64,000 nucleotides of DNA from Chloroflexia bacterium SDU3-3 (GCA_009268125.1 WBOU01000004.1:148494-212493); one strand, 5' to 3'. Positions 8,162 through 56,992 are shown, numbered from the stretch's first letter. Notes: generated by a model not told the origin, from the sequence alone. A program made the numbers and translations.

Positions 8162-8243
8162 CTTCGCCTCTTCGCGGTAAATAGGTATCTTTACCTCTCT
8201 TGGTGCCTTGGTATCTTGGTGGTAAACGGTCTTGGTGGCGAAT
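8162..8243 (+). repeat. dispersed intergenic repeat copy F (CTTGGTG(G) direct-repeat module ending CTTGGTGGTAAA)
   Basis: cttcgcggtaaatagg...cttggtgccttggtatcttggtggtaaacggtcttggtgg. It shares modules with the copies at 28.3, 45.3, 50.9, 51.8 and 56.9 kb. Confidence 0.5.
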
Positions 8244-8294
8244 TCCGTCGCAGGCCGCACGCGCACTTGCGCGGCTGCGGTATAATAGGCGCAG

Positions 8295-8556
8295 CATACA
8301 AGCTGTGACGAAGCAAAAGTAGGCATGGGGAAGCGATCAGAGAGCGGTGGTCAGCGGCTGGGAGCCGCCGCCGTGGAAGCATGCCGAAGTTCTCTTCTGA
8401 GCTGAGCGGGGAAACCTGGGCGTCGCCCGTGGGAGTAGTCGTTTCCGGCGGCCCGCCGTTATCGGGCTGTGAGGGCCTGCTGCGCCACGCGCGGGGGCCA
8501 AATCAGGGTGGTACCACGGGTCACGCCTCGTCCCTGCGAGCGCGTGGCTTTTTTGT
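8295..8556 (+). promoter_or_regulatory. T-box riboswitch leader of pheS, probably Phe-specific, with terminator
   Basis: Conserved T-box AATCAGGGTGGTACCACGGG at 8501-8520, then terminator stem (cacgcctcg...cgagcgcgtg) plus gcttttttg. Upstream AG-rich stem-I-like segment (gatcagagagcgg) and UUC triplets in a gaagUUCucUUCugag context. TATAAT at 8281. Confidence 0.6.
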
Positions 8557-8592
8557 TGCCCGGCGACCTGGGGGTGGCCGGGGCGGAGGATA

Positions 8593-9648
8593 ATGGAGCA
8601 TATGGCACTGAGCGACGATCTGAAGGCGCTGCAGGAGCGCGCCCTAGGGGCGCTGGCGGCGGCGAACGACGCGGCGGCGCTGGCCGAGTGGAAGACCAGC
8701 TTCCTGGGCAAGAAGGGCGAGCTTTCACAGCTGAGCCGGGGCCTAGGCGCGCTGACGCCGGAGGAGCGCCCGGCGGCGGGGCAGGCGTTCAACGCGGTGC
8801 GGCAGGCGCTGGAGGCCGCGATGGACGAGACCGAGCAGCGCGTGAAGCAGGCGGCGCGGGCCTCCGACTTCGCGCAGGATGAGGTGGACGTGACGCTGCC
8901 GGGGCGCAGCCCGAGCGTGGGCCGCATCCACCCGATCAACCAGACCATCCGCGAGATCATCGATATCTTCGGCGATATGGGCTTCCAGGTGTGGGAGAGC
9001 CCCGAGATCGAGACCGACGAGGTGAACTACGGCCTGCTGAACTTCCCGCCGGAGCACCCGGCGCGCGACATGCAGGACACGTTTTATGTCGACACGCCGC
9101 CAGATGCCGAGAAGCTGGTGCTGCGCACGCACACCTCGGGCGGGCAGATCCACGCCATGCGGCGCTTCGCGCCCGAGCCGGTGCGCGTGCTGCTGCCGGG
9201 CAAGGTCTACCGCAACGAGCAGGTGTCGGCGCGGTCGGAGATGCAGTTCAGCCAGTTCGAGTTCCTGGCGGTGGGCAAGGGCATCACCCTGGCCGACCTG
9301 AAGGGCACGCTGGGCGCGATGGCCGAGCGGCTGTTCGGCGAGGGCACCAAGGTGCGGCTGCGGCCCTCCTACTTCCCGTTCACCGAGCCGAGCGCGGAGA
9401 TGGATGTGACCTGCTTCCTGTGTGGGGGCAAGGGCTGCCGGATCTGCAAGCACAGCGGCTGGCTGGAGATCGGCGGCTGCGGCATGGTGCACCCGAACGT
9501 GCTGCGCAACGGCGGCTACGACCCGGCGGTATACAGCGGGTTCGCGGGCGGCTTCGGGCCGGAGCGGATCAGCCTGCTGAAGTATGGGATCGACGACATC
9601 CGCTGGTTCCTGAGCGGCGACGAGCGGCTGATCCAGCAGTTTGGATGA
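8593..9648 (+). CDS. pheS: phenylalanine--tRNA ligase alpha subunit
   Basis: 351 aa, class II aaRS motifs (FRPSYFPFTEPSAEMDV, GWLEIGGCGMVHPNVL). RBS GGAGGA upstream. Confidence 0.9.
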   Translation: MEHMALSDDLKALQERALGALAAANDAAALAEWKTSFLGKKGELSQLSRGLGALTPEERPAAGQAFNAVRQALEAAMDETEQRVKQAARASDFAQDEVDVTLPGRSPSVGRIHPINQTIREIIDIFGDMGFQVWESPEIETDEVNYGLLNFPPEHPARDMQDTFYVDTPPDAEKLVLRTHTSGGQIHAMRRFAPEPVRVLLPGKVYRNEQVSARSEMQFSQFEFLAVGKGITLADLKGTLGAMAERLFGEGTKVRLRPSYFPFTEPSAEMDVTCFLCGGKGCRICKHSGWLEIGGCGMVHPNVLRNGGYDPAVYSGFAGGFGPERISLLKYGIDDIRWFLSGDERLIQQFG

Positions 9649-9679
9649 TGTGCGAGCGACCAGCGCGACGGAGCGCCCG

Positions 9680-11467
9680 ATGAGGCACCACCGACCAGTC
9701 CTGATCCTGCTGCTGCTGTTCGTCGGGCTTGCGGCGCTGTACAGCGCGGCCACGCCGCTGGGCGAGGGGCCGGATGAGCCAGGGCACGCGGGGTATGTGT
9801 TCTTCCTGGCCAGCGCGGGGCGGCTGCCCGACCCGCGAGCGGGCGAGGTGCCCGGCGAGGGCCACCAGCCGCCGCTGGCCTATGTGGCGGCGCTGCCTGC
9901 CGCGCTGTGGCTGCCCGCCGACCAGCGGGCGCTCGACCAGCCCGCCAACGCGCGCTTCGCGTGGGGCGGCGGGGGCGATAGCAACGCGGTGGCCCACGGC
10001 AGCCGCGAGCTGTGGCCGTGGCGCGGCGCGGCGCTGGCCTGGCACCTGATGCGGCTGGCCAGCGTGGCCTGGGGCGCGCTGGCGGTGGGCACGACCTACC
10101 TGGCCGCGCTGGCCGGGGCGGCGCGGCTGGCTCCCGGCGTGGAGCCGAGGCGCCTCGCGCTGCTGGCCGCCGCCGTAGTGGCGCTGAACCCGCAGTTCCT
10201 GTTCATCTGCGGGGTGGTGAGCAACGACCCGGCGCTGGCGGCCTGCTGCGCCGCGGCGCTGTGGCTGGCCCTGCGCGGGCCGGGGGCATGGCCGATGGCG
10301 CGCTACGGCGCGACGCTGGGCCTGCTGCTGGGGCTAGGCCTGCTGGTGAAGCTAAGCGCGCTGGTGCTGGGGCCGCCGCTGGCGCTGGCGCTGGCGGCCT
10401 GGGCCTGGAAGCCTGGGCGCGCGGGCGCGGCGCGGCGGCTAGCGGCTGGCGCGGGCGCTTTTGGCGGCGCGGCAGCGCTGGCGGCGGGCTGGTGGTTCGT
10501 GCGCAGCTGGCAGCTGTACGGCGACCCGCTGGGCGTGGCGGCCTTCAGCGCCGAGTTTGCGACGCAGCCGTTCGACTTCACCAGCCCGCTGGCCTGGGCC
10601 ATGGCGCTGGGCCAGCTGCATAGCTCGTTCTGGGCGCGCTTCGGCTGGATGAACATCGCGCCGCCGCTGTGGGTGGTGTGGCTCTACGGCGCGCTGGCGC
10701 TGGCCGGGCTGGCTGGCTGGGCGATCCAGGTGCGGCGCGGCGGGCTGCGGCCCTGGCTGCCGCCGCTGGCCCTGATCGCGACAGCGGGGGCGTGGCTGCT
10801 GCTGTTTGTGCGCACGGCGGGGCTGGTGGGCTGGCAGGGGCGGCTGGTCTTCCCCGCGCTGCCCGCGCTGGCCCTGCTGCTGGCGGCGGGGCTGGCCCAC
10901 CCCGTGTGGCGCTGGCCGCGCGCCAGCGCGGCGGCGGGGCTGGCCGCGCTGGCGCTGCCCGCGTGGCTGGCGCTGGGCGTGATCGCCCCGGCCTACCAGT
11001 GGCAGGTGCTGAGCCAGCCTGCCGCGCTGGCCCGGATCGAGCGCGAGGTCTACGGGCGCTTCGGGCTGGCGGGCGACCCAGGGGCCGACCTGCGCGGCTA
11101 CGCGCTGGCTGGGCAGGCCCGCCCCGGCCAGGCGCTGGAGCTGACGCTCTACTGGCACTCGCAGGGTCGCCAGAACCGCGACTGGACGGTGTTTGTGCAT
11201 CTGGTGGATGCCGACGACACGATCGTGGCCCACGTGAACGGCATGCCGCGCCAGGGTCAGTTCCCCATGGGCCAGTGGGACGCGGGCGACTGGGTGGAGG
11301 ATACCCACACGCTGGCGCTGCCCGCCGACCTGCCGCCGGGCACCTACCGCCTGCGGGTGGGCCTGTACGACGCCAAGGGCAGCCAGCGCCGCGCCGGGAT
11401 GTGGGATAAGAAAAACAAGCTACGTGGCGACTACCTAACACTGAGCGATATACAGGTGACAGAATAG
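9680..11467 (+). CDS. GT-C fold membrane glycosyltransferase (ArnT/PMT, GT39/83-like) with a C-terminal soluble domain
   Basis: About 595 aa, more than 10 predicted TM helices. First-loop DE motif (LGEGPDEPGHAGYVFF), Ala/Leu-rich TM core, about 150-aa C-terminal domain. ATG 9680 has a GGAG RBS; the track ORF begins at TTG 9641. Confidence 0.6.
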   Translation: MRHHRPVLILLLLFVGLAALYSAATPLGEGPDEPGHAGYVFFLASAGRLPDPRAGEVPGEGHQPPLAYVAALPAALWLPADQRALDQPANARFAWGGGGDSNAVAHGSRELWPWRGAALAWHLMRLASVAWGALAVGTTYLAALAGAARLAPGVEPRRLALLAAAVVALNPQFLFICGVVSNDPALAACCAAALWLALRGPGAWPMARYGATLGLLLGLGLLVKLSALVLGPPLALALAAWAWKPGRAGAARRLAAGAGAFGGAAALAAGWWFVRSWQLYGDPLGVAAFSAEFATQPFDFTSPLAWAMALGQLHSSFWARFGWMNIAPPLWVVWLYGALALAGLAGWAIQVRRGGLRPWLPPLALIATAGAWLLLFVRTAGLVGWQGRLVFPALPALALLLAAGLAHPVWRWPRASAAAGLAALALPAWLALGVIAPAYQWQVLSQPAALARIEREVYGRFGLAGDPGADLRGYALAGQARPGQALELTLYWHSQGRQNRDWTVFVHLVDADDTIVAHVNGMPRQGQFPMGQWDAGDWVEDTHTLALPADLPPGTYRLRVGLYDAKGSQRRAGMWDKKNKLRGDYLTLSDIQVTE

Positions 11468-11507
11468 GCGCGTGCCGCCGATCGCCTGAAACCATAACGG
11501 AGGGGAT

Positions 11508-14012: not shown

Positions 14013-14025
14013 CGCGCCCCAGTGC

Positions 14026-14056
14026 GGCCCGCCGAGCAGCTGTTGCTCGGCGGGCC
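14026..14056 (+). terminator. palindromic hairpin after pheT
   Basis: ggcccgccgagcagc-tgt-tgctcggcgggcc, a perfect stem with no U-tract. Confidence 0.4.
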
Positions 14057-14316
14057 GCGCGCCAACGACAGCGCGTCGTTTCCCCAGGCGGCATCTCCAT
14101 CTGCCGTAGTGAAACCATAACCGCCCGACCACGTGCAGCGCCCCACCACCATGCCGCTACCAGACCGCATCACAATCGGCTAGAAGATCGCCCCCCAGCG
14201 CTCGGCGCGGCGCAGCAAACCCTGGTATAATTCTTGACAGTACCTACTCCGCGTGCTATCCTACCGTTCACCATCTAAAACCGGCATCGTTCGCACCACA
14301 ACATTGTGCGCGTATT

Positions 14317-16632: not shown

Positions 16633-16654
16633 CGCGGCGCGCGGGCAGCCACCA

Positions 16655-16701
16655 GACACAGCGCGGGGGCTAGGCAATATGCCTGGCCCCCGCGCTGTGT
16701 C
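16655..16701. terminator. bidirectional hairpin between convergent rel and oppF
   Basis: gacacagcgcgggggc-(15-nt loop)-gcccccgcgctgtgtc, a perfect 16-bp stem. Confidence 0.5.
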
Positions 16702-16728
16702 GTGCGCGTCGCTCGCGCAGCTTCGCCG

Positions 16729-17798: not shown

Positions 17799-18015
17799 GG
17801 TCGAGGTTCATTCTGACCCGGTCGAGGTTCATTCTGACCCGGTCGAGGTTCATTCTGACCCGGTCGAACCTCATTTTGCACCGGTCGAGGTTCATTCTGA
17901 CCCGGTCGAGGTTCATTCTGACCCGGTCGAGGTTCATTTTTTCGCCGTCGAACCTCATTTTGCACCGGTCGAGCCTCATTTTGCACCGGTCGAACCTCAT
18001 TTTGCACCGGTCGAG
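17799..18015. repeat. 21-bp tandem minisatellite, about 10.5 units, between oppD and oppF
   Basis: Unit GGTCGAGGTTCATTCTGACCC x3, then variants GGTCGAACCTCATTTTGCACC and GGTCGAGCCTCATTTTGCACC. Positions 7-9 alternate GGT/ACC/GCC. No spacers. Confidence 0.9.
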
Positions 18016-18022
18016 CCTGTAT

Positions 18023-24005: not shown

Positions 24006-24490
24006 CATTTTGGGTGAAAGCGCATCTATGCCCATACCGATCTGGCATGGAATAACCTAGGTAAATCCGAGCATGCTATGCTTTTAGAAAGCCAAGCACT
24101 ATGCTTTAGGAAAGAACCTGCACATGCCGCATCCGCGCGGCGCTATGTCTTCACCTATTGGGAACGCTCTCAAGATTATGGCAGAGAGTATAGAAGAGCC
24201 GCCAGGTTTTGTCAAGTTGATGTTACTGTGATACCCGAAGTATAGCTTATGTTCTCCATTAAACACAAGCCCATGTTTAATGAGAAAAAACTCACTTTCC
24301 CACAGGCAGTGCGGCTAGCTGCTTGCACAGAAGGAGAGCGAGGCTGCAAAGCTGGGGGCGCTTACTTTCCCAAAACGACGGCGCGGTAGCGGTACCACGG
24401 GCTGCGCACCGCAGGAGAGGTCACATTTGACGTTGGTCTGGCGCGGATCTGACATGAGCGCGGGCGATAGTGCGTGTTGAGGAGGCGGAT

Positions 24491-24655
24491 GCCCTGCGCG
24501 GGCAGCGCCGAGGGGCTAGCCCCTAGGAACCCCACAAGGGGGCGTCGCACCCTCCGAACCCCCAATGTTGAGCGTTCCGATGCTGCTCGCTGGCGGCTGG
24601 TGTTCGTGCATATGGCCAGTTTGCACGAGCGGCACCTTCGCCACATGGGCGGGGT
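24491..24655. repeat. about 165-bp repeat, copy 1; its paralog lies at 36401-36565 beside the IS element
   Basis: Roughly 85% identity to 36401-36565. Contains the 14-bp palindrome AGGGGCTAGCCCCT and shared blocks GGCTGGTGTTCGTGCATATGGCCAGTTTGC and GGCACCTTCGCC. Confidence 0.8.
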
Positions 24656-24805
24656 GGGCTGAACGGCGCAGCGCAATTCTGCTTTGCAGGCATACCCTGG
24701 CGCGCGAGATGATGTGCACGATCGCACCCACATGCTCTGCGCAGAAATGTGATTGCCTCGTAGGGCGTGCTATACTACCCCCTACGAGGCATATCAAAGC
24801 TACCT

Positions 24806-28249: not shown

Positions 28250-28379
28250 GCCTATGCGTTCTCGTTCTGCAAAACGTTTTACCACCAAGACTCCAAGGAA
28301 CAAAAAGACCTCATCTATCACGAAGCCACGACTCCTGCGTTGCCTTCTTGCATGCTTTCTGGAGAACGCATAGATCCTT
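28250..28379. repeat. MITE-like dispersed repeat copy C, inverted orientation, with terminal inverted repeats
   Basis: cctatgcgttctcgttctgcaaaacgttttaccaccaag...gagaacgcatag: termini CTATGCGTTCTC / GAGAACGCATAG plus the TTTTACCACCAAG core. Confidence 0.6.
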
Positions 28380-30816: not shown

Positions 30817-30992
30817 CTGTCTCCCCTATGATATAGACCAAGCACGCCGCTATTGTACATGTGAATCGCTGGAACCTCGCGCACCACAGCGCGTATATAT
30901 CTCCAGAGCGCCCGACACGGCGCATCTCTAGCGGCGAGAGACACCGGCCAGTTTGGCGCGGCGCGCAGCAGGTATCAAGAAAGGATACCACC

Positions 30993-33008
30993 ATGGGGGC
31001 AATGCTCCTCCTCAACATGATCGGCATCTTCATCATCGTTATCGCGGTGCTCTGGATCTTCTTCCAGTTCGTCCGCTTCATCCCGAACAACCGCATCGGC
31101 ATCGTCGAGAAGCGCTTCGGCGGCAAGTCGGTCAAGAGCGGCCTGATCGCGCTGAACCACGAGGCGGGCTTCCAGCCCAACGTGCTGCGCGGCGGCATCC
31201 ACTTCTTCACGCCGTTCCAGTACAACCTGCACATCGTGCCGCTGGTCACCATCCCGCAGGGCAAGATCGGCTACGTGTTCGCCCGCGACGGCCAAGCCCT
31301 GGCCCCGGCGCAGACCCTGGCCTCGAACGTGGCGGCCAACGACTTCCAGGATGTGGCCAGCTTCCTGCGCAGCGGCGGCCAGCGCGGCCCGCAGCGCCAG
31401 ATCCTGCGCGAGGGCACCTACGCCATCAACCTCGCCCAGTTCATGGTGATCACCGAGGAGCGTGTCTACTACCTGCCGCTCAGCCGCGACGAGGACGCCA
31501 TGATCAAGCGCATGGCCGAGGTGATCAGCGACCGCGACGGCTTCGAGCCGGTGGTGATCAAGGATACCGACGACGCGGTGGGCATCGTGACGGTGCACGA
31601 CGGCCCCTCGCTGGGCGAGGGCGAGATCATCGCCCCGCTGGTGGGCAACGAGCCAAGTACACCCGAGACCTACCACAACAGCTTCCAGGACCCCGAGAAG
31701 TTCCTGGCGGCGGGCGGCCAGCGCGGTCGCCAGTACCAGGTGCTGGTCGAGGGCACCTACTACATCAACCGCCTGTTCGCCACCGTCGAGCTGATCGACA
31801 AGACCGTGATCGAGGTGGGCTACGCCGGTGTGGTCATCTCCTACGCAGGCGAGATAGGGGCCGACCTCTCGGGCGAGGACTACACCCACGGCGAGCTGGT
31901 GAGCCGTGGCAGCCGTGGCGTGTGGAGCACCCCGCTGATGCCCGGCAAGTACGCCTTCAACACCTACGCCGGCCAGGTGGTGCCGGTGCCCACCACCAAT
32001 ATCATCCTGAAGTGGAGCCGCAGCGAGATCGGCGCGCACAAGCTAGATGAGAACCTGTCGGAGATCTCGCTGATCACCAAGGACGCCTTCGAGCCGTCGC
32101 TGCCGCTCTCGGTGGTGGTGCACATCGACTACCGCAAGGCCCCGCTGGTCATCCAGCGCTTCGGCGATGTGAAGCGGCTGGTCGAGCAGACACTCGACCC
32201 CATGGTGGCGGCCTACTTCAAGAATATCGGCCAGACCCGCACGCTCATCCAGCTGCTCCAGGAGCGCAGCGTCATCCAGTCGCTGGCCAGCGAGCAGATG
32301 CGCGAGAAGTTCGTCAACTACAACCTGGAGCTGGAGGAGGTGCTGATCGGCACGCCGTCATCCGGCAAGGGCGACACCAAGATCGAGGACATCCTGACCC
32401 AGCTGCGCGCCCGCCAGATCGCCGAGGAGCAGATCGAGACCTACGCGCGGCAGGAGAAGGCGGCGGTGAAGGAGCGCGAGCTGCGCGAGGCCGAGGCCCG
32501 CGCCAAGCAGCAGGCCGTGCTCACCCAGTCCGAGCTGTCGATCACCGTGCAGTCGAACGAGGGCAAGGCCGAGTACCAGCGCGCCCTGCAGCAGGCCGCC
32601 CAGATCCGCGCCCTGGCCGAGGCCGAGGCCGAGAAGACCGCCCGCATCGGCGTGGCCGAGGCGATCGCCATCGAGGAGAAGGTGCGCGCCTACGGCGGCC
32701 CGCAGTTCCAGGTGACGCAGCAGGTGATGACCCGCTTCGCGGATGCGATCGAGGCCGCCAAGGTCAACATCGTGCCACAGGTGGTGGTGGGCGGCGGCAG
32801 CGAGGGCGGCAGCAGCAGCCAGAACCTGATGGAGGGCCTGCTGGCCACGCTGCTGTCGGAGAAGCTGGGAGTGCCGATCAATGCGGTAGCCGATGCCAAG
32901 CCCGAGGTGTCGGCCATGCGCGAGCAGATCCTGCGCCAGCTCTCGTCGGAGCTGCCCAAGGCGGGCCAGCCGCCGGTGGCCCCGCCGCAGCCCAACGGCA
33001 GCAAGTAG
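30993..33008 (+). CDS. flotillin-like SPFH/band-7 protein
   Basis: N-terminal TM helix, SPFH domain, long Ala/Glu/Gln-rich coiled-coil (EAEARAKQQAVLTQSELS...). ATG 30993 with RBS. Confidence 0.8.
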   Translation: MGAMLLLNMIGIFIIVIAVLWIFFQFVRFIPNNRIGIVEKRFGGKSVKSGLIALNHEAGFQPNVLRGGIHFFTPFQYNLHIVPLVTIPQGKIGYVFARDGQALAPAQTLASNVAANDFQDVASFLRSGGQRGPQRQILREGTYAINLAQFMVITEERVYYLPLSRDEDAMIKRMAEVISDRDGFEPVVIKDTDDAVGIVTVHDGPSLGEGEIIAPLVGNEPSTPETYHNSFQDPEKFLAAGGQRGRQYQVLVEGTYYINRLFATVELIDKTVIEVGYAGVVISYAGEIGADLSGEDYTHGELVSRGSRGVWSTPLMPGKYAFNTYAGQVVPVPTTNIILKWSRSEIGAHKLDENLSEISLITKDAFEPSLPLSVVVHIDYRKAPLVIQRFGDVKRLVEQTLDPMVAAYFKNIGQTRTLIQLLQERSVIQSLASEQMREKFVNYNLELEEVLIGTPSSGKGDTKIEDILTQLRARQIAEEQIETYARQEKAAVKERELREAEARAKQQAVLTQSELSITVQSNEGKAEYQRALQQAAQIRALAEAEAEKTARIGVAEAIAIEEKVRAYGGPQFQVTQQVMTRFADAIEAAKVNIVPQVVVGGGSEGGSSSQNLMEGLLATLLSEKLGVPINAVADAKPEVSAMREQILRQLSSELPKAGQPPVAPPQPNGSK

Positions 33009-33035
33009 CCCCGACGCGGCATCGCCGCACAAACA

Positions 33036-33080
33036 CGACAAAGGCCCCAGGCAGTGCGCCTGGGGCCTTTGTCGTGTTTT
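33036..33080 (+). terminator. rho-independent terminator after the flotillin gene
   Basis: acaaaggcccca-ggcagtgcgcc-tggggcctttgt followed by cgtgtttt. Confidence 0.6.
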
Positions 33081-33336
33081 GGATGTGTTACATAGCTGTT
33101 ACATGACCTTGATGTCGCTGTGAGGATGCCATGGTATACAGGCATGTATCACCACACAAGACGATCAGGAGGAGATTATGGCACCTGTTCAAGCTAGCCG
33201 AACGCCCGCGTTCATAGAAATAGCCTCAGGAAACCCCCGCTCTTTAGGCGGGGGAGGAATGAGGCTTTACCCACATTCCTCGCTTGTACAAGGTTCCAGC
33301 GTCGCCGCATTCAGCGGCGCGGGCATCCGACGTTCA

Positions 33337-33753
33337 CTAAAGTTTCTGGCACTCTAGGATGTACCGCTTAATCACCGATGCACTCACGTGCCCTGCGGTG
33401 CCGACGTCATAAGAAGGTGCCCACAACGTGCCAACTTTCCAGATATGGCGGTCAATCTCTGTAGGGAACTCTTGCCGCAAAACACGCGACGTTGTTCCCT
33501 TAAAGAGTTGGGCCAGTTGCGCAGGACTGAACTTTGGCGGCGCGGAAACGAATAGGTGAATGTGATCCGGCATGACTTCCTGTGCGACCACTTCAATCCC
33601 CCATCGCTCCGCAATCTCACCGAGAAGCCCTTGCAATCGTTCCTGAATCTTGCCAACAAGCACCGGACAGCGGTACTTCGGGCACCACACCAGGTGGTAG
33701 TTGATGTGGTACCGTGCTCCCGGCGTTGATTTGACATGCGTAACTTCCATCAC
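33337..33753 (-). CDS. tnpA: IS200/IS605-family transposase TnpA (Y1 HUH)
   Basis: 138 aa. HUH motif (PDHIHLFVSAPP) and a catalytic-Tyr region (SYDVGTAGHVSASVIKRYI). GTG start overlaps the upstream ORF's TGA. Confidence 0.85.
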   Translation of the reverse strand: MMEVTHVKSTPGARYHINYHLVWCPKYRCPVLVGKIQERLQGLLGEIAERWGIEVVAQEVMPDHIHLFVSAPPKFSPAQLAQLFKGTTSRVLRQEFPTEIDRHIWKVGTLWAPSYDVGTAGHVSASVIKRYILECQKL

Positions 33754-34304
33754 GCTGCAACCCGAACGGCTGGCAAGCCAGCGAGTACCCGCGCTCGTGC
33801 GTGGGCGATGCGGGGAGCAAGACTGGCGAGGCTTGGCGCTTGGGTGAGTGCTTCCAGATCCTCGTCACCTTCGATGTACGCTCGAACGAACGCAACGCCG
33901 ATATGACCCGCAAACCGTCCTACCTCAGTCAAGTCAACCTCAACATCGCTAGCTTTGAACGTTACACCATCAATTTCGTGATCAGGGCCTGTCCACCGCT
34001 CTACCTCTACAGGTTGCGATGTATCGCGACCAATCAAGCGGCGAATGTCAGGATGTTCAAGCAGGTAAGACAGGGCGCGCAACTCGGCAATACCGGAAGC
34101 CTTGAAATCAGCCGTTCGGTCAAGTGCATCAAGATAGCCAACCCAGCCATCTTCCGAGTCGTCAAACAGGGCCAGCTTGACCTTGCCACACACATAAGCG
34201 GTGCATTCCCGTTCGTCGTTGTGTTCGGTGGTAACTACATCCTCAGGAATGGTAGCGGGGGCTTCCTGATTGACTGCCGCCTCGCTGTGTGCGTTCTCAA
34301 GCAA
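33750..34304 (-). CDS. unknown acidic protein (ORF-X), coupled to tnpA; possibly part of a longer 232-aa ORF interrupted by an in-frame TAG
   Basis: 184 aa with no internal Met and a weak TTG start without RBS. The same frame continues upstream past one TAG (34311-34313) into a 45-aa ORF with ATG near 34449 and RBS GGAAGGA. The TGA stop overlaps the tnpA GTG (GTGA). Confidence 0.45.
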   Translation of the reverse strand: MLENAHSEAAVNQEAPATIPEDVVTTEHNDERECTAYVCGKVKLALFDDSEDGWVGYLDALDRTADFKASGIAELRALSYLLEHPDIRRLIGRDTSQPVEVERWTGPDHEIDGVTFKASDVEVDLTEVGRFAGHIGVAFVRAYIEGDEDLEALTQAPSLASLAPRIAHARARVLAGLPAVRVAA

Positions 34305-34550
34305 TTTGTACTACTCGGCGTTGCAGAGCGTTTCACCTTCGCCGTAAGGAGAGCGGCTGCCAAGATAGTTCTCGGTGCCATTGGCAAAGATGAGATAGCA
34401 GTTGTCGTCGCGGGTGATTCGGTCGTAGCGGATTGACTTTGTGGTAGAATCGGCTTGCATTGGAACTCGTCCTTCCAGTGTAGTGGCCTCGTGGGTGGTA
34501 CGAACACCTGCGGGGCCGCGCTTCGTTTCTGTGCCTGTATTATAGCACAG

Positions 34551-34604
34551 TGTACCTACATTATATATACATGTATTGCAATATAGGTACATATGTGATA
34601 TACT
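34551..34604 (+). promoter_or_regulatory. nested 41-bp palindromic operator overlapping a sigma70-like promoter for the HTH-tnpB transcript
   Basis: TGTACCTA...TACATGTA...TAGGTACA, symmetric about 34571/72. -35 TTGCAA (34576-81), 17-bp spacer, -10 TATACT (34599-604). Confidence 0.45.
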
Positions 34605-34650
34605 GCGTACAGTTACGATATACTCTTGCACAGGGGAAGGAGCAAACAGC

Positions 34651-34908
34651 ATGCAAGGGTTTCCTATGCCTATTCGAAGTCGCGTAAAGGTACTTCTAGC
34701 GGAACGCAACTTAGATCGAACACGTTCAGGCGAGGAGTTGATTAGCGTCCGTCGGTTGTCTCGTGAGACAGGGATTACCCACTCGGCGCTCGTGAAGCTC
34801 GTAAACAACCAAAGCGAACGTGTAGACTTTGAGACGCTTGATAAACTCATGCGTTTTTTCGAGACGACGGACATTCGCGATATTCTGGAGTACACCCCCG
34901 CCGAATGA
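34651..34908 (+). CDS. small XRE/Cro-type helix-turn-helix protein, translationally coupled to tnpB
   Basis: 85 aa: MQGFPMPIRSRVKVLLAERNLDRTRSGEELISVRRLSRETGITHSALVKLVNNQSERVDFETLDKLMRFF.... RBS GAAGGAG 7 nt upstream. Its TGA overlaps the tnpB ATG (ATGA). Confidence 0.65.
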   Translation: MQGFPMPIRSRVKVLLAERNLDRTRSGEELISVRRLSRETGITHSALVKLVNNQSERVDFETLDKLMRFFETTDIRDILEYTPAE

Positions 34909-36020
34909 AGCTCACCGCTCAAATCCAGCTTCGCCCCACACCCGCGCAAGCCGATGCCCTCAGGCGCACGCTTGAAACGGCAAACGCCGCGTGCAACGCA
35001 ATGAGCGCAACGGCGTGGGAAACGGGTACGTTCGGGCAATTCGCTTTGCACAAGCTGTGCTATGCCGATACACGGGCCGCATTCGGTCTGTCGGCGCAAG
35101 TGACGGTGCGCTGCATTGCGAAAGTTGCCGATGCCTACAAGCTGGATAAGAAGGCGCAGCGCACGTTTGCACTGCTTGGTGCCGTGGCCTATGACGCGCG
35201 CATCCTGTCGTTTAATCTCGCCGGTTCCTCGGTCTCCATCTGGACAATGGATGGGCGTCAGGCTATCCCCTTCGTGTGTGGCGAACGCCAGCGGGCGATG
35301 CTTGAACACCAGAAGGGTGAAAGCGATCTGGTGTTCAAGCGCGGTAAGTGGTACTTGCTTGTTACCTGCGAGGCAGTGCCAGCGGGAACAGAATGCGCGT
35401 CGGGCGTGTTGGGCGTTGCTCTTGGTGTGACGAACATTGCCACCGATAGCGACGGCACCATCTACAGCGGCAAGGCTATCAAGAACGTGCGTTATCGCCA
35501 TCGGCGGTTGCGTGGCAAACTCCAAAAGAAGGGCACCAAAAGCGCACGGCGACGGCTTCAAGCCCTGTCGGGTAAGGAATATCGGTTCGCACGGCACGTA
35601 AACCATGTCCTCAGTAAGCAGCTTGTGGCGACGGCCAAACGCACGAAGCGGGCGATTGCGTTGGAAGATTTGACGCATATTCGCACGCGGGTTAGGGCTA
35701 GACGGTCGCAGCACGCCACGCTGCACAGTTGGGCATTCGCACAACTGCGGGCGTTTGTCACCTATAAGGCGCAATTGGCGGGTGTGACCGTCCATTTTGT
35801 CGACCCTCGGAATACATCGCGGGAATGCCCGAACGGTGGACATACCGCGAAAGAGAACCGGAAAACACAAGCCTCGTTTGTTTGCACATCGTGCGGGTTC
35901 GCTGGCCTCGCAGATGTGATCGCGGCAGGAAACATTTCCCGCCGGGCGGCTGTAAACCCGCCACACGGCTCGCGAGACGGTACTCCTACCGGGCTGGCAG
36001 GGCCAAAGCCTGCGGCTTAA
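34905..36020 (+). CDS. tnpB: TnpB (IS605 OrfB family; RuvC-like RNA-guided nuclease), catalytic residues intact
   Basis: 371 aa. RuvC-I (GVALGVTNIATDSDG), RuvC-II (AIALEDLTHIR), zinc finger (CPNGGH...CTSCGF), RuvC-III (GLADVIAAGNI). Confidence 0.85.
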   Translation: MKLTAQIQLRPTPAQADALRRTLETANAACNAMSATAWETGTFGQFALHKLCYADTRAAFGLSAQVTVRCIAKVADAYKLDKKAQRTFALLGAVAYDARILSFNLAGSSVSIWTMDGRQAIPFVCGERQRAMLEHQKGESDLVFKRGKWYLLVTCEAVPAGTECASGVLGVALGVTNIATDSDGTIYSGKAIKNVRYRHRRLRGKLQKKGTKSARRRLQALSGKEYRFARHVNHVLSKQLVATAKRTKRAIALEDLTHIRTRVRARRSQHATLHSWAFAQLRAFVTYKAQLAGVTVHFVDPRNTSRECPNGGHTAKENRKTQASFVCTSCGFAGLADVIAAGNISRRAAVNPPHGSRDGTPTGLAGPKPAA

Positions 36021-36400
36021 GCCGTGGGTTGTTTACTGCATTCAGTAGCTCGCTGGCTGCCTTTATCTTGGAGTGCGCGATTGTACCAGCCGCCCATCTC
36101 CTGCCAGAAAAAGCTGGATTCTATGCCTTTTCATGGAGCATCGCGCTAACGTTGATCCTCGCATCTGTGGGGGTTTTCCTTGGAGATGTGAGCTATAGAC
36201 AGTCGCAGAACAGATATTCACTGCTTGGGATGATTGGGGGTATGCTTGTGTTGATTCTGTTTCTTATCGGTATGTTCGCACTGATGCAGCCGCAAGCAGT
36301 TTCGCTGGATTGTGTGAGGGCCAGCCCGCTCAACAGATGTCACTTTTGAGCCTTTTGTGCGCCATCCCCGAGCACGGTACTTCTTGATGGGTGGGTGGGT

Positions 36401-36565
36401 GCCCTGCGCGGGCGGCGCCTAGGGGCTAGCCCCTAGGAACCCCACGAGGGGGCGTTGCCCCCTTCGATCTCCCAATTTTGGGCGTTCCCGTGCGGTCCGC
36501 AAGCGGCTGGTGTTCGTGCATATGGCCAGTTTGCCGTCGCGGCACCTTCGCCGCATGGGAAGGGT
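36401..36565. repeat. about 165-bp repeat, copy 2; paralog of 24491-24655
   Basis: See copy 1. Lies about 380 bp downstream of the tnpB stop, outside the inferred right-end hairpin. Confidence 0.8.
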
Positions 36566-36716
36566 GAGATGCCGCGCCTCGATTATTGCCCATGCGGTTG
36601 AGATTGAGCTTTCGCACCCGCAATGCGGTGGGCAGGGTTTGGCACGATAGCTTGTGATATCTACTCTACCAGCCCAGATATATACTTTCCCTGTAGTGAC
36701 ACAAAACGACCGCTAT

Positions 36717-45302: not shown

Positions 45303-45406
45303 TTCTTCGTGCCTTCGAGTCTTCGTGGTAAATAGGGTCGTATATTCCTTGGTGTCTTGGAGCCTTGGTGGTAAAACGTTCTGCCGAACGAGAACGCATA
45401 GACCCT
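45303..45406. repeat. dispersed repeat copy A
   Basis: ...cttcgtggtaaatagg...ccttggtgtcttggagccttggtggtaaaacgttctgccgaacgagaacgcatagaccctg. Has the 3' module but lacks the 5' TIR. Confidence 0.6.
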
Positions 45407-50482: not shown

Positions 50483-50649
50483 CGCTCAAGCCCTAGCCGC
50501 AAGCCTCGCCTTAGCAGCTATCTGCCATCGTTACGTGCAGATCGTCGCTGGGGCGAGGCTTTTTCTGTTACAAAAAGTGTATGATCAGCCGCTTCTTTTC
50601 TTCACACAAAAATACTGTATCCCATAGATGACACAGCATTCTTTATCGT

Positions 50650-50812
50650 TCGGCGATGATGATTAAGCTTCCGGCGATGGTGATTAAGCTTCCGGCGATG
50701 ATGATTAAGCTTCCGGCGATGATGATTAAGCTTCCGGCGATGATGATTAAGCTTCCGGCGATGGTGATTAAGCTTCCGGCGATGGTGATTAAGCTTCCGG
50801 CGATGGTGCTGT
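50650..50812. repeat. 21-bp tandem minisatellite, about 7.8 units, AT-rich, between bglX and birA
   Basis: Unit CCGGCGATG(A/G)TGATTAAGCTT with R = A/G variation. Contains AAGCTT. No spacers. Confidence 0.9.
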
Positions 50813-50860
50813 GCGGTATACATCATACATACGCATCAAAATCTATCGTCGCCACCAAAC

Positions 50861-50890
50861 AAAACTTGGAGCCTTCTTGGTGGTAAAAAT
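50861..50890. repeat. dispersed repeat fragment E (core only)
   Basis: aaaacttggagccttcttggtggtaaaaat, preceded by the complementary gccaccaa giving a possible hairpin. Confidence 0.4.
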
Positions 50891-50930
50891 ACCCGCCCCA
50901 CCCACGCTCAGAATGCACTATACTGCCGCC

Positions 50931-51725: not shown

Positions 51726-51744
51726 GAGCTACTCTGCCCAAAGC

Positions 51745-51870
51745 GCGAAGACGCGAAAAACGAAAACTTCTTGCTATTCGTTTCTTCTACTCTTCTACCC
51801 TCTTGGTGTCTTGGAGCCTTGGTGGTAAAAACCCTCGTGCCTTCGCGTCTTCGTGGTATTCGTTCTCTTG
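51745..51870. repeat. dispersed repeat copy D with its own flanking inverted repeat
   Basis: gcgaagacgcgaa...cttggtgtcttggagccttggtggtaaaaaccctcgtgccttcgcgtcttcgtggtattcg. Shares the cttcgtgg/ctcgtgcc modules with copy A. Confidence 0.5.
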
Positions 51871-51923
51871 GAACCTTCATTGACGGGCCAAAAGAGATGG
51901 GGTACACTCGCCGCAGGACGCCA

Positions 51924-52541
51924 ATGAAGGATAAGGAAACCGCCATGGGACGTGCAGCACGAGCCAAGCGCCAGCGCCGCGAGGCAGTCGAATTTGTCAG
52001 CGGGCTGACCGCCTGCGAGGGCACCTGGCTAGAGCGCCAGCCCGACAAGGATGAGCAGCAGCGCGTGGCCGCCGCCCGCCAGGAACTGGCCAAGCACCGC
52101 GACATCGCCGCCGAGCTGGCCAAAGACGAGGACGCCGCCAACCGCTTCAGCCTGCAGGTGCTGCGCGAGGACCGCTTCGCCCCGCTCTACTTCGAGGACT
52201 GGGTGGTGGAGCAGGTGATCGACGGCCTGGGCGAGCCGCCCGTGGTCGAGAGCGACGACGACCCGGCGTTCAGCAACTACCTGCGGGCGGCGGTGCAGGG
52301 CATCGCATCCAGCCGCGTGCGCCGCGCCCTGGCCAGCCAGGCCTCGCGCCTGCTGCCTGGGCTGGTGGCCGAGGGCAAGATCCGCGAGGCGCTGGCCGTC
52401 GAGTACAACATCTTCCTCACCCTGATGAGCGAGGCGATCACACCGCTGCTAGCCCAGATGATGGTGGGCGGCCTGGCGCGCTACTACGACGCGCTGGATG
52501 GCTACGAGGATGGCAACGAGGAGCCATCGGCGGGCGAGTAG
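51924..52541 (+). CDS. hypothetical protein
   Basis: About 205-aa acidic ORF. Start ambiguous (ATG at 51897, 51924 or 51945). Confidence 0.45.
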   Translation: MKDKETAMGRAARAKRQRREAVEFVSGLTACEGTWLERQPDKDEQQRVAAARQELAKHRDIAAELAKDEDAANRFSLQVLREDRFAPLYFEDWVVEQVIDGLGEPPVVESDDDPAFSNYLRAAVQGIASSRVRRALASQASRLLPGLVAEGKIREALAVEYNIFLTLMSEAITPLLAQMMVGGLARYYDALDGYEDGNEEPSAGE

Positions 52542-52594
52542 CAACATGCGAAAAGGGCCAGGGCGCGTGCCCTGGCCCTTTTCTTTGCGCTGGG

Positions 52595-53671
52595 CTAGAG
52601 CGCCACCCGCGCCGAGCGCTGGCGCAGCAGGTGGTCGGCCAGCACCAGGGCCAGCATGGCCTCGGCGATCGGCACCAGGCGCGGCAGCACCGTCGGGTCG
52701 TGCCGCCCGTGGATCTCGATGGTCTGCGCCTCGCCGTCGCGGTCCACCGTCTGCTGGGGCTGGGCGATCGAGGCCGGGGGCTTGGCCGCCAGTCGCAGCA
52801 CGATCTCCTCGCCGCTAGAGATGCCGCCCAGGATGCCGCCGTGGTGGTTGGATGTGGTGCCGATGCTGCCGTCGGCGCGGCGCACGAACGGGTCGTTGTG
52901 CTCGGAGCCACGGAAGCCCGCCACCCCAAAGCCCTCGCCGAACTCCACGCCCTTAATCGCCGGGATGGAGAACATGGCCTTGCCGATATCGGCTTGCAGT
53001 TTGTCAAACACTGGCTCGCCCAGGCCGGGCGGCACGCCGCGCGCCCGCACCTCCACCACGCCGCCCAGCGAGTCGAGGCTGCGCCGCGCAGCGTCCACCC
53101 GCTCCACCATCTGGGCGGCCACGGCGGCGTCGGGGCAGCGCATCAGGTTGCGCTCGATCTCGGCCTCGTCGAACTCCTTGGCCTCCAGGTCGCCTAGGCG
53201 CGATGTCCAGGCCAGCACCGAGATGCCAGCGCTGGCCAGCAGCAGCTTGGCCACCGCGCCGCCCGCCACGCGCCCGATGGTCTCGCGCGCGCTGGAGCGC
53301 CCGCCGCCGCGGTGGTCGCGGAAGCCGTACTTGGCATCCCAGGTGTAGTCGGCGTGGCCGGGGCGATACATGTCCTTGATATTGCTGTAGTGGGCCGACT
53401 TGGCATCCTGGTTCCAGACCATCATGGCGATCGGGGTGCCGGTGGTGCGGCCCTCGAACACGCCCGATGCGATCTGCACCTTGTCCGGCTCCTGCCGCGC
53501 CGAGGTCATGCGGCTCTGGCCCACCCGCCGCCGGTCGAGCTCGCGCTGGATGTCCTCCTCGCCCAGCGCGAGGCCGGCGGGGCAGCCATCCACCACGCAG
53601 CCCACCCCCGGCCCATGCGACTCGCCCCACGTGGTCAGCCGAAAGATCTGCCCGAAGCTATTTCCACCCAT
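52595..53671 (-). CDS. aroC: chorismate synthase
   Basis: [33 protein letters not shown]...RPGHADYTW...[10 protein letters not shown] is the canonical AroC sequence. Confidence 0.85.
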
Positions 53672-53763
53672 GGTCTCTCTTGCTCCTGATCGCGACGCCG
53701 CGCCGCGTGATGGCGCTGCTTTGTGCCGATCATAGCGGCTTGCGCGGCGGGCGTCAACCGCAC

Positions 53764-55038
53764 CTAGGCCAGTGTCTGCACCATCTGGTAGGTCTCGCGC
53801 AGCCGCTGGTCGTTTGGCGCAAGCGTGATCGCGTGTTCGAGGGTGGAGATCGCCTTTGCGCGCTGCTTGACCTGGGCGTAGGCGAGGCCTAGCGCATGCA
53901 GGTACTGCACGTTTGCCGCATCGCCATAGGCTGCCGCCTCCCACTCTTGCATGGCCGCATACCACATTCCCTGCTCTTTCAGGGCTATCCCGGTATTGTA
54001 GTGCTCAGCGGCTGTGCCCGCGCCCACCGTGTGCACAAAGCGCACCTTGCTGCCAAAGACCTTGGGGTAGCCTCGGTAGAGCAAAAACCCTTGGAACGAG
54101 ATCCATAGGAAGCTGATAACGAGCACAACTAGCATCAGCACCATGATCATCGTTGAGGACGTGAGCATCTGGATATCATCGCTTTGTGCAACCATGATCA
54201 CAAACTCAACAACACGCTGGAGAAAGCCAAGCGTATTCAGGCCAAGCAGAATGACGGCCACGATGAAGGCCCAGCGCCGCCGCAGGAACAGGCCGCGCGC
54301 GATCAGAATGGCGGGAAGGGATATGACGGACAAGATGATAAGCACGATAATCCTGCTGGCGCCATCCAACAGCAGATCAACCCTGCTATTCATGATTGGA
54401 CCCCAAAGGAAAATCACAAACACAAAGGCGATAATCACCGGCAGCACCCAGAGAAATGCCAGCAGCGTGAGCGAGCGGCTGCCCTCCTCAGGGTTCGGCG
54501 GGGTGTGCAGCAGCATGGGGCGGCTGCACTGGGTGCACCGCCGTAGCTTGAGCGGCATCATCGCGCCGCAGCAGGGGCAGGGGGCCGCATCGCCTGCCAC
54601 GGGTGCGGCAGGTGCGGGCCGCGCAACCTCGACGTCGGCCACAGCGGGCGCGGCCATCGGCTCGCTGGGAGGCGCAGCGGGCGTGGCCACCTCGGCAGCG
54701 GGCGCGGCCACCTCGGCGGCGGGCGCAGGGGTAGCGGGTGCGGCAGCCTCGGCGGGCGCGGCGGGCGCATCCGCTGGCTGGCCCACCTCGCGCGCCTGGG
54801 GCCTGCCATACTTCTGATCAAGGATGGCAATACCTTTGAGGGCATGCGGGTTGCTCGGCTCCAGGTGCAGCACATTGTCTAGGCAGACCCGCATCTCCTC
54901 GGGGTCATCCACCACGCCAGAGAGCCACAGCCAGGCCTGCGCGTTCCGCTCGTCGGTCTCAAGCACGCGCATCAGCAAGGCGCGCGCCTCCTCGCGGCGG
55001 CCAGCACGGGCCGCCGCCATCGCATCTGATAGAGTCAT
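53764..55038 (-). CDS. TPR / zinc-ribbon / multi-TM membrane protein
   Basis: N-terminal TPR-like segment, Ala/Pro-rich linker, CPCC...CTQC zinc ribbon, about 4 TM helices, C-terminal TPR repeats. Its ATG overlaps the upstream gene's stop (ATGA). Confidence 0.5.
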
Positions 55039-56645
55039 GTGTTTTTCTGTTTTGTCCAGACCACTGCGCCCTCGACCATGGTCAGGTCGGCGCTCACCCG
55101 ATGAAGCTCGGTCGGCGGCAGGGTAAACGGGTCGTCGGAAAGGACGGCGAGATCGGCCAGCATGCCGGGGGCCAGCGCGCCCAGCCTGCCAGCCATGCCC
55201 GCCGTGTAGGCGGCCCCCGTGGTGAAGCCGCGCAGCGCATCGGCCAACGTCAGCCGCTGCTCGGGGTGCCAGCCGCCCTCGGGCTGGCCGCCCGGGCGCT
55301 GGCGGGTGACGGCGGCGTGGATGCCCAGCCAGGGGTTGAGCGACTCCACCGGCGCATCCGAGCCGAAGGCCAGCGTCGCGCCCGCATCCTGCAGGGCGCG
55401 CCAGGCGTAGGCCGTGGCGCAGCGCTCGCCCCACAGCCGGTCCGCCGTCTCGATGTCGGATGTGCAGTGGATAGGCTGCATGGATGCCACCACGCCCAGC
55501 TGCGCAAAGCGCGGGATGTCGGTCGGGTCGAGCAGCTGGCAGTGCTCGATCCGGTTAGGGATGCCGCCGAAGCTGGCGGGCGCACCCTCGGCCCGCGCCG
55601 CCGCGATCGCATCCAGCACGCGTCGGTTGGCCCCATCGCCGATGGCGTGGACGATCACGGCGATGCCGCTGGCGTTGGCCTTGCGCACCGATGCGTTCAG
55701 ATCCTGGGTACTGTAGGTCTGGATGCCGGTGTTGCGCGAACCCTCGTAGGGCCGCAGCAGCTCGGCGGTCTCCGACCCCAGGGTGCCGTCGGCAAACATC
55801 TTCACGCCGCCCAGGCGCAGCCAGCGGTCGCCCAGCCCGCTGCGCAGGCCCAGCGCGATAGCCGAATCCAGCGTGCCGATATCGAGGTGCACCAGGCAGC
55901 GCAGGGCCAGCTGGCCGCGCTCGCGCAGCTGCTGGGCGGTGCGCAGCACCATGGCCCCATCGCCCACATCCAGGTAGGGTGGCACATGCACCCCGGCCAT
56001 GCCATACGAGTGGGCCTCGGCGATGGCGTCGCGCACCGCAGCCAGCCGGTCCTCGTCGGTGAGCGGCGGGATGTGGCGGCGCACTAGGTCGATGGCGGTC
56101 TCGAACAGCAGGCCGGTCGGCAGGCCATCCTCGCGGCGGATCGCGCCGCCCGCCGGGTCGGGCGTCTCGGCGCTCACCTGAGCGATCGCCAGCGCGTGCG
56201 AGTTGAGCCATGCGCAGTGGCCATCCTTGCGGAACAGTAGCGCGGGGCGGTCGGGCACCACCGCATCCAGCTCGGCGGCGGTGGGCCAGCGCCCGCCCCA
56301 GCGCACGTGGTCCCAGCCGCCGCCCTGCAGCCACACGCCGGGGGGCAGCGCCGACGCCGCCCGCCCGATCTGCGCCAGCGCATCCTCGTAGCTGGCCGCG
56401 CCATCCAGGCTCACCTCGCGCCGCCGCAGCGCGTGGGCCACCAGGTGCACATGCGCGTCGGTCAGCGCGGGGATCAGGGCGCGCTTGCGCAGGTCGATCG
56501 ACTCGGCCTGCGAGCCGGCGGCGGCGAAGACCTTGCCCACGCTGCCCACGGCCAGCACCCGCCCGTCGCGCACGGCGATCGCGCTGGCCTTGGGGTTCTG
56601 CGGGTCGAGCGTGTAGACCGGGCCGTTGTGAAAGATGATCGTCAT
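55035..56645 (-). CDS. amidohydrolase-family metal-dependent hydrolase
   Basis: Metal-binding HVH (TDAHVHLVAHAL), HxH and Asp motifs of the amidohydrolase_3 superfamily. Confidence 0.7.
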   Translation of the reverse strand: MTIIFHNGPVYTLDPQNPKASAIAVRDGRVLAVGSVGKVFAAAGSQAESIDLRKRALIPALTDAHVHLVAHALRRREVSLDGAASYEDALAQIGRAASALPPGVWLQGGGWDHVRWGGRWPTAAELDAVVPDRPALLFRKDGHCAWLNSHALAIAQVSAETPDPAGGAIRREDGLPTGLLFETAIDLVRRHIPPLTDEDRLAAVRDAIAEAHSYGMAGVHVPPYLDVGDGAMVLRTAQQLRERGQLALRCLVHLDIGTLDSAIALGLRSGLGDRWLRLGGVKMFADGTLGSETAELLRPYEGSRNTGIQTYSTQDLNASVRKANASGIAVIVHAIGDGANRRVLDAIAAARAEGAPASFGGIPNRIEHCQLLDPTDIPRFAQLGVVASMQPIHCTSDIETADRLWGERCATAYAWRALQDAGATLAFGSDAPVESLNPWLGIHAAVTRQRPGGQPEGGWHPEQRLTLADALRGFTTGAAYTAGMAGRLGALAPGMLADLAVLSDDPFTLPPTELHRVSADLTMVEGAVVWTKQKNT

Positions 56646-56855
56646 TGTCGGTGCCATCTCTTTCGCAAGGCGCACTATGCCCTGCAGTGGTTCTATACGC
56701 TGCCGCAGGCACAGAGTTTCACGCAGAACGGGTTAGGCTATCGTACCCTTTTTTTCCTGCGACAGTCAATAGAAAAGCGGTTAAAGAGTGCTGGGGAAAG
56801 CATACCCCATAAGCGCCAATAGTTCATGAAACGTAAAAAGCACGAGTTCAGATCA

Positions 56856-56992
56856 ACAGGGTCTATGCGTTCTACGCAGCCTTTACGCTGGGGTAAACGG
56901 GCAACGTTCCAAGCATAGCCTATGTTTGCCCCAGTGCAGTTTGGAGTCTTGGTGGTAAAAATGTTCTGCCGAACGAGAACGCACAGGCGCTA
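56856..56992. repeat. MITE-like dispersed repeat copy B, complete with TIRs
   Basis: cagggtctatgcgttctacg...gtttggagtcttggtggtaaaaatgttctgccgaacgagaacgcacag. Confidence 0.6.

Follow-up and report, generated by a model that had tools for sequence, protein, structure and literature searches.

Small, selfish-looking genes that sit in a bracket of inverted repeats within a host transcription unit are known from free-standing homing endonuclease genes of the PD-(D/E)XK type, such as I-Ssp6803I, and from 23S rRNA intervening sequences that bear an open reading frame (ORF). Repetitive extragenic palindromic (REP) sequences carry a GTAG or CGTC tetranucleotide head and are species-specific (PMC3733652). 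In Geobacter metallireducens, three classes of paired sites (classes 1-3) consist of 3-5 tandem units of 7-9 nt, the two sites of a pair being located on opposite strands at a variable distance (Aklujkar et al. 2009, PMC2700814). These sites are intergenic and dispersed, insertion sequence (IS) elements insert at a fixed distance from them, and they were described as unique to one species, without an associated gene, and tentatively assigned to an unknown global regulator (PMC2700814). Here we describe a dispersed family of tandem 8-nt arrays in a 64,000-nt stretch of Chloroflexia bacterium SDU3-3 (GCA_009268125.1, WBOU01000004.1:148494-212493; hereafter the window, with positions counted from its first letter), together with its association with GxxExxY, a predicted nuclease. 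The window repeats are probably gene-less, partly decayed or rearranged arms of a widespread GxxExxY-associated foldback family. Family membership, spread across phyla, the tight association with GxxExxY and one insertion/deletion polymorphism are shown directly.

Tandem 8-nt arrays occupy six intergenic sites

A search for the core motif CTTGGTGGTAAAA at one mismatch or fewer returned six matches in the window, at 8215(+), 28277(-), 45364(+), 50876(+), 51818(+) and 56948(+), and none in 100 dinucleotide-preserving shuffles. A first-pass annotation had reported at least six intergenic copies; all six intervals were read, and each site proved to be intergenic on a gene map based on GC content at third codon positions (GC3). 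One site is bordered by a methyltransferase-like gene and pheS, two lie between pairs of minus-strand genes, one is found on each side of birA, and one is upstream of tRNA-Val (57052-57128), the sole Rfam or tRNA feature near the window elements. The BirA encoded in the window shows 100% identity to the SDU3-3 protein; exact look-ups of three window proteins gave no record, probably owing to the choice of start codon.

The stacking of 8-bp units, previously written CTTGGWGN, is real, but the 8-nt unit is better expressed as CTTNGNGN, three of which form a full array; the last unit is CTTGGTGG, followed by TAAA, giving the array end GGTGG-TAAA. Two array flavours occur in the window, with either G or C (CTTCG..) at unit position 4. 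The arrays do occur in both orientations, albeit unevenly, with five of the six core motifs on the plus strand; the GC skew of the window is too weak to show a replication-strand bias.

Arrays of the same family flank GxxExxY genes

Among loci selected for their arrays, two unrelated contigs (GC 0.57 and 0.37) contain inverted array pairs with unusually long spacers, which enclose homologous 130-aa ORFs whose start and stop codons abut the array arms. Both ORFs encode GxxExxY proteins (TIGR04256, E 9e-36 and 4e-43; PF13366 PDDEXK_3, E 2e-34 and 5e-41). Four of the five GxxExxY genes in the array-selected loci are bracketed by arrays within 2-55 nt. Furthermore, when all ORFs near arrays were clustered, GxxExxY was the only protein family that recurred beside them.

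As a control for selection bias, the association was approached from the protein side, with six GxxExxY homologues taken from a profile search and their loci found by exact sequence. In every one of the six, CTTNGNG arrays or entire foldbacks are present to the left and to the right of the gene; five of these loci together hold 34 arrays at a distance of no more than 400 nt from it, versus 4 in the other ~90 kb. Searching IMG/VR through the protein yielded one further locus, the seventh (L190), with arrays of an ATCYGCG flavour instead.

A nucleotide profile was then built from only the 17 arrays that flank GxxExxY genes. With E values between 1e-8 and 0.012, this gene-flanking profile recovered eight arrays in the window, covering all six sites; no other window sequence scored below E = 1, which places the window repeats in the GxxExxY-associated family. 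Gene-less elements predominate in this family, with about 100 close pairs versus 4-5 gene-bearing pairs in the array-selected loci.

Two further observations concern the genes found between or beside arms. In two unrelated pairs of contigs (L193-L197, around 10001-10393), a GxxExxY gene with tandem foldbacks separates mod, the methylase gene, from res, the gene for the helicase/restriction subunit, in type III restriction-modification operons. In L040 (3033-3475), inverted arrays enclose a 130-aa ORF in the manner of GxxExxY, but this ORF matches nothing in Pfam or NCBIfam; it lies beside a tyrosine integrase gene, and the arms may thus carry other cargo.

The partner protein is a predicted PD-(D/E)XK nuclease

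GxxExxY (TIGR04256 / PF13366) comprises about 130 aa and belongs to the PD-(D/E)XK superfamily. Residues E34, D74, E84 and K86 are invariant in the alignment and correspond to the PD-(D/E)XK catalytic set, with the E..D..ExK pattern intact. The AlphaFold model is confident (pLDDT 93), and a fold search with it returned Cas4 and lambda exonuclease as the best solved structures, both weak, generic PD-(D/E)XK matches; no GxxExxY homologue was found in the PDB by sequence. The family is very large, with at least 7999 homologues at E <= 1e-10 in a profile search. A 2012 survey of the superfamily recorded PDDEXK_3 as being of unknown function, present in prokaryotes and viruses and subject to multiple transfers. 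Almost no literature on GxxExxY was found, the name appearing only in passing.

The unit sequence recurs, arm complementarity does not

Architecture was counted across 189 loci (1.29 Mb), among the matches listed. Arrays of three units are the most frequent (n = 256), followed by two units (n = 91) and four or more (n = 9). Close neighbouring arrays are arranged predominantly as outward-facing (-,+) pairs, with 100 such pairs versus 17, 9 and 11 in the other arrangements, and the spacer of inverted pairs is short and variable (median 34 nt). The family consensus is CTTGGTGY CTTGGTGY CTTGGTGG-T, and all arrays listed have GGTGG and then T(T/G/A)(A/C) at the outer end.

Within the unit, C1, T2, T3, G5 and G7, which the search patterns imposed, recur in matching arrays in every genome sampled; positions 4, 6 and 8 vary freely and follow the base composition of the genome. 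On its own, a 24-nt array consists of three direct repeats and is not palindromic, and hairpins arise only from array pairs; paired elements form long hairpins with mismatches at regular intervals (z = -4.6 and -5.0 versus shuffles). At the variable positions, to which the arm comparison is confined, arms of the same element agreed at 4.7 of 8 positions versus 4.3 of 8 for arms of different elements (permutation p = 0.1); arm-to-arm compensation is absent there. The recurrence of the unit sequence without recurrence of arm complementarity points to a reader that recognizes each unit. Moreover, the same five unit positions are found in genomes of 29% to 72% GC and in many phyla, which is unusual for a dispersed repeat and implies that the reader is conserved.

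Other unit flavours were seen beside CTTGGTG foldbacks or nested outside them, namely ATCTGCGGA three times followed by ATAAA, CTCTGCG three times followed by GGTAAAT, and an ATCCGTG type (L047, 2480-2640; L056, 3620-3900 and 12060-12290; L190, 1300-2013). These flavours, which in L190 flank a GxxExxY gene, suggest a superfamily with a general unit of roughly TYNGYG.

The family spans many phyla, phages and metagenomes

The repeat is not peculiar to the SDU3-3 lineage: the same 24-nt array is present in many phyla and on phage contigs. This breadth outside SDU3-3 answers indirectly the possibility, raised by the first-pass annotation, that copies are restricted to the window. An exact-pattern scan of one genome per species gave 30 loci, about five of which are chance or coding matches, near the number that we estimate from database size, and the remainder (~25) are non-coding. 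The non-coding copies include seven loci in candidate division FCPU426 and seven in one Bacteroidetes metagenome-assembled genome (MAG), and further carriers are found in Verrucomicrobiota, Cloacimonadota, Planctomycetota, the cyanobacterium Fischerella, Desulfuromonadales, Chromatiales and Anaerolineaceae. With a looser pattern, arrays were detected at 31 loci in IMG/VR, ranging in GC from 0.29 to 0.72, and at no fewer than 120 loci in metagenomes. PLSDB plasmids gave no real array matches, and a literature search with array sequence strings returned primers only.

Most elements are found where a short spacer separates two co-directional genes, and they point either way; phage copies include those preceding the scaffold and capsid genes on a T7-like contig. 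In the Bacteroidetes MAG, a mosaic repeat includes the array as one of its modules, next to alternative neighbours, and several contigs terminate in an array. A different arrangement was observed on the phage-like contig L043 (2699-7982), where five solo arrays precede successive genes by 30-55 nt in gene orientation, reminiscent of mycobacteriophage stoperators. Orthologous BirA loci in relatives reach only 65% identity and lack synteny, too distant for an empty-site comparison at the sites of the window. Rfam covariance models at the gathering score matched only tRNA-Val in the window; neither the gathering scan nor an E-value scan found anything at the elements of the window or of 26 related loci, and the sub-threshold matches were unremarkable.

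One site is filled in one contig and empty in another

Of two contigs with ~80% identity, one has about 180 nt more, including a complete foldback, between the same two genes: the element is present in L037 at about 640-830, and L056 is empty at 1776-1793. At a second site, common to both contigs, the arms are conserved and the spacers are unrelated. Target-site duplications, a check for which the first-pass annotation had called, were not seen by inspection in the listed flanks of 33 array pairs, where no direct repeat was apparent, and the boundaries of the filled/empty pair are too diverged for exact junctions.

The window copies are solo, direct or nested arms

The window elements are listed in Table 1. 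No clear outward-facing inverted partner was found for the G-flavour arrays of the window, the sole candidate being the degenerate CCACCAAAC at 50852-50860. The only inverted pair among the window arrays is of C flavour (51743-51766 and 51834-51860); its arms close the fold of 51740-51875 (z = -3.5). A 3' module, GAACGAGAACGCA, had also been noted, and it is indeed present at three sites (45386, 56971 and 28255(-)); what had been overlooked is that the module is one arm of an inverted repeat, CTATGCGTTCT ... AGAACGCATAG, which closes the two composite units of 122-124 nt. The module at 45377-45406 was not found in this form in the other loci, and it resembles an other-flavour array in L173. 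Given that the SDU3-3 arrays are solo, arranged as direct G/C-flavour pairs, or nested in a lineage-specific inverted-repeat module, they are regarded as non-autonomous or decayed derivatives, which have settled in AT-rich intergenic spacers.

Table 1. Array elements and composite units in the window. C-flavour arrays were identified by pattern scan and reading; E values refer to the gene-flanking profile.
Feature	Sequence	Position	Strand	Remarks
C-flavour array	CTTCGCAC CTTCGCCT CTTCGCGG TAAAT	8154-8182	+	Family architecture; missed by the gene-flanking profile (CGC variant)
G-flavour array, complete	CTTGGTGC CTTGGTAT CTTGGTGG TAAAC	8199-8227	+	nhmmer profile E 5.9e-7
Additional unit	CTTGGTGG	8231-8238	+	Downstream of the 8199-8227 array
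Composite unit, 122 nt	ends CTATGCGTTCT / AGAACGCATAG	28252-28373	-	Holds the 28277-28297 array; closed hairpin fold, z = -2.7
G-flavour array, two units, shorter or degenerate	CTTGGAGT CTTGGTGG TAAAA	28277-28297	-	E 2.2e-4
C-flavour array	CTTCGTGC CTTCGAGT CTTCGTGG TAAAT	45305-45333	+	E 3.9e-6
G-flavour array, complete	CTTGGTGT CTTGGAGC CTTGGTGG TAAAA	45348-45376	+	E 1.9e-8
Lineage-specific 3' module	CGTTCTGCCGAACGAGAACGCATAGACCC	45377-45406	+	Inverse of the left end of the 56863 unit
Degenerate short element	CCACCAAAC ... CTTGGAGC CTT CTTGGTGG TAAAA	50852-50888	+	Shorter or degenerate G-flavour array at 50865-50888; E 0.012
Inverse C-flavour arm	GCGCGAAGACGCGAAAAACGAAAA	51743-51766	-	Pairs with 51834-51860
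G-flavour array, complete	CTTGGTGT CTTGGAGC CTTGGTGG TAAAA	51802-51830	+	E 1.1e-8
C-flavour array	CTCGTGC CTTCGCGT CTTCGTGG TATTC	51834-51860	+	E 6.7e-3
Composite unit, 124 nt	ends CTATGCGTTCT / AGAACGCACAG	56863-56986	+	Upstream of the tRNA-Val promoter; fold z = -3.0
G-flavour array, shorter or degenerate	TTTGGAGT CTTGGTGG TAAAA	56940-56960	+	Inside the 56863-56986 unit; E 0.011

The window contains other repeats. A nearly perfect 21-bp tandem array of CGGCGATGATGATTAAGCTTC (50651-50805; 7.4 copies, 97% matches) occupies the spacer between an 827-aa gene and birA, directly upstream of the degenerate 50852-50888 array. Another 21-bp tandem array, at 17799-18015, comprises about 10 copies of GGTCGAGGTTCATTCTGACCC with 85% matches; a weak minus-strand ORF of 90 aa, located between two larger genes, overlaps it. 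A different dispersed repeat, about 170 nt long (24490-24660 and 36400-36570), shows 87% mean column identity over 241 aligned columns and contains the palindrome CCTAGGGGCTAGCCCCTAGG; both copies lie in long non-coding gaps. The region 30950-36700 has a lower GC content (0.63-0.64) and no ORF accepted by the GC3-based gene filter, and it may be foreign or otherwise atypical DNA.

Alternative explanations account for parts of the evidence

The periodicity of the arrays invites a regulatory explanation, in which a regulator or nucleoid protein reads the tandem 8-bp units as operators, in the way that ribbon-helix-helix proteins read met-boxes and heptad arrays, and modulates the promoters of pheS, birA, the 51946 gene and tRNA-Val. 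Conserved positions that recur every 8 bp without hairpin compensation suit a unit-reading protein, sigma-70-like promoters follow four of the six window sites at a distance of 20-60 nt downstream, and an unidentified global regulator was proposed to bind the paired tandem octanucleotides of Geobacter metallireducens (PMC2700814). The five arrays of L043, placed before successive genes in gene orientation, also favour operators. However, two window sites lie between minus-strand genes, beside the 3' end of a gene, and the 45303 copy runs antisense to the genes on either side; the two orientations relative to the downstream gene are about equally common across loci. Moreover, no regulator gene recurred near the arrays in the ORF clustering, and operators would leave both the clustering around GxxExxY genes and the filled/empty site unexplained. 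The earlier suggestion of a reiterated regulatory module could apply at individual sites, but it fits the family poorly, given copies between the 3' ends of genes, antisense copies, phage copies and both orientations within operons. We consider the operator explanation unlikely.

A second explanation operates on RNA: inverted arrays within operon transcripts would form imperfect stems of ~24 bp, serving as processing sites for RNase III or another enzyme or as 3' stabilizers, similar to REP hairpins or to the stems flanking 23S rRNA intervening sequences; their effect would be to insulate the GxxExxY message or to release it. Most elements indeed lie in short co-directional spacers, one of them between mod and res of a type III restriction operon, and the hairpins of paired elements far exceed their shuffled counterparts in stability. 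The stem length, too, would suit a double-strand-specific RNase. The variable arm positions, however, do not co-vary, so that the stem is not the conserved feature, and a purely structural signal would not need the same unit sequence at 29% to 72% GC. In addition, most window copies are solo or direct and unable to form a stem, and neither the window elements nor those of the 26 related loci matched Rfam. Stems acting in RNA are therefore an improbable account of the family.

The arrays could, finally, be portable promoters, the first unit supplying TTGnnn and, 17 nt downstream, TGG-TAAAAn completing a -35 / extended -10 geometry; the spacing is exact in three-unit arrays and the L043 arrays stand 30-55 nt upstream of start codons with Shine-Dalgarno sites, but the putative -10 usually lacks its final T (TAAAAC, TAAACG, TAAAAA), window genes have better promoters of their own downstream of the arrays, about 40% of TAAAA-bearing arms face the 3' end of a gene, and the arms upstream of GxxExxY genes occur in either orientation, which makes this explanation very improbable. 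The -10 sequence and the orientation led us to reject it. Operators, RNA stems and promoters each explain parts of the evidence, and none explains the clustering around one nuclease gene.

Several further candidates were dropped as the main explanation, since each accounts for only part of the unit or needs the variable positions: Chi-like sites (the last unit resembles GCTGGTGG), Shine-Dalgarno sponges, G-quadruplexes, IS91 targets (CTTG / GTTC), elemental pause signals, and MraZ- or MetJ-type boxes.

A candidate mobile element built on unit arrays

We return to the foldback family associated with GxxExxY. In the mechanism that we propose, a protein would read each 8-nt unit separately; the GxxExxY nuclease, acting in trans, is the most economical candidate. 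The nuclease would drive the spread of the elements or the exchange of their cargo, either by homing-like cleavage and repair or by cut-and-paste, and the window copies would have no necessary function for the neighbouring genes. More tentatively, the arrays and the nuclease may constitute a previously unrecognized class of mobile element, spread over many bacterial phyla and their phages, in which the nuclease recognizes the triple units and moves or exchanges cargo between or beside arrays without target-site duplication, with gene-less foldbacks and solo arms as its non-autonomous progeny; this wider proposal is possible, and we hold it with less confidence than the placement of the window repeats in the family.

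Several points weigh against these interpretations. The nuclease role of GxxExxY is predicted, and its DNA binding is proposed. The filled/empty comparison is a single pair outside the SDU3-3 lineage, and a deletion explains it equally well. The GxxExxY gene of L190 is flanked by a different unit flavour, and no array was detected at that of L156. Gene and arms are also arranged variably: L075 and L161 have the gene inside a pair, and in L195, L198 and L193 it stands between two foldbacks, unlike a classical transposon with defined ends. Within the 64-kb window itself, no GxxExxY gene or remnant was found, and the copies at 8150-8245 and 45300-45406 fold no better than shuffles; the window copies, mostly solo arms, may be relics without any activity.

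The link between the arrays and GxxExxY offers a testable substrate for the protein family and a candidate enzyme for the repeats. The arrays are also of practical concern: they break metagenome assemblies, as the several contigs that end in arrays illustrate, produce spurious ORFs such as ...SWCLGALVV..., and are open to misreading as regulatory sites.

Comparison with known systems

A dispersed extragenic repeat with non-autonomous copies is a known kind of object; the unit structure, the conservation across phyla and the GxxExxY partnership were not described in the literature that we searched. The original assignment to a REP/MITE-type family (MITE, miniature inverted-repeat transposable element) is supported by the non-coding, AT-rich location, the large size of the family and, outside the window, an insertion/deletion polymorphism, but several defining features of REP sequences and their REP-associated tyrosine transposases (RAYTs) are lacking, and no target-site duplication is seen.

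The array-bracketed GxxExxY genes resemble the homing endonuclease genes and ORF-bearing 23S rRNA intervening sequences in the setting outlined at the outset. Unlike those, they have no intron or rRNA context, and their flanks are periodic arrays instead of a unique target sequence.

Like MITEs and other foldbacks, the elements described here are small (50-190 nt), have inverted arms at the ends and an interior that varies, occur in many copies without a gene for each one that has it, and show a filled/empty site, here a single one. The small size and terminal inverted repeats of MITEs are matched by the 100 outward-facing pairs, while the window units 28252-28373 and 56863-56986 are closed by a different inverted repeat. 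Unlike MITEs, the arrays show no target-site duplication, and their arms consist of three 8-nt units that are mismatched at the free positions. The same arms bracket GxxExxY genes, although this partner encodes no recognized transposase and its placement relative to the arms varies.

REP sequences, their mosaic assemblies (BIME) and the REPIN-RAYT system are likewise short extragenic repeats, often inside operons, that form inverted doublets with a variable spacer and mosaics with other modules, and REPIN-RAYT is similarly tied to a single small nuclease-type gene flanked by repeats. However, a REP unit is an imperfect palindrome of 20-40 nt, whereas a single array is not palindromic; the GTAG/CGTC head is missing here, the outer end being GGTGG-T(A/T/G)(A/C) in all arrays listed; and the array sequence, unlike that of REP, is conserved across phyla. 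The partner gene differs as well, being a Y1 (IS200-like) RAYT for REP and the PD-(D/E)XK protein GxxExxY for the arrays; no RAYT gene turned up beside arrays in the ORF clustering, which did not include a direct scan with RAYT/Y1 models.

In the Geobacter metallireducens paired sites, the units differ (GTTGCTYN, TCTCCGTS(Y) and MTYCTGA), and the strings CTTGGTG and CACCAAG are absent from the supplementary files of PMC2700814; the architecture of those sites nevertheless matches that of the arrays described here.

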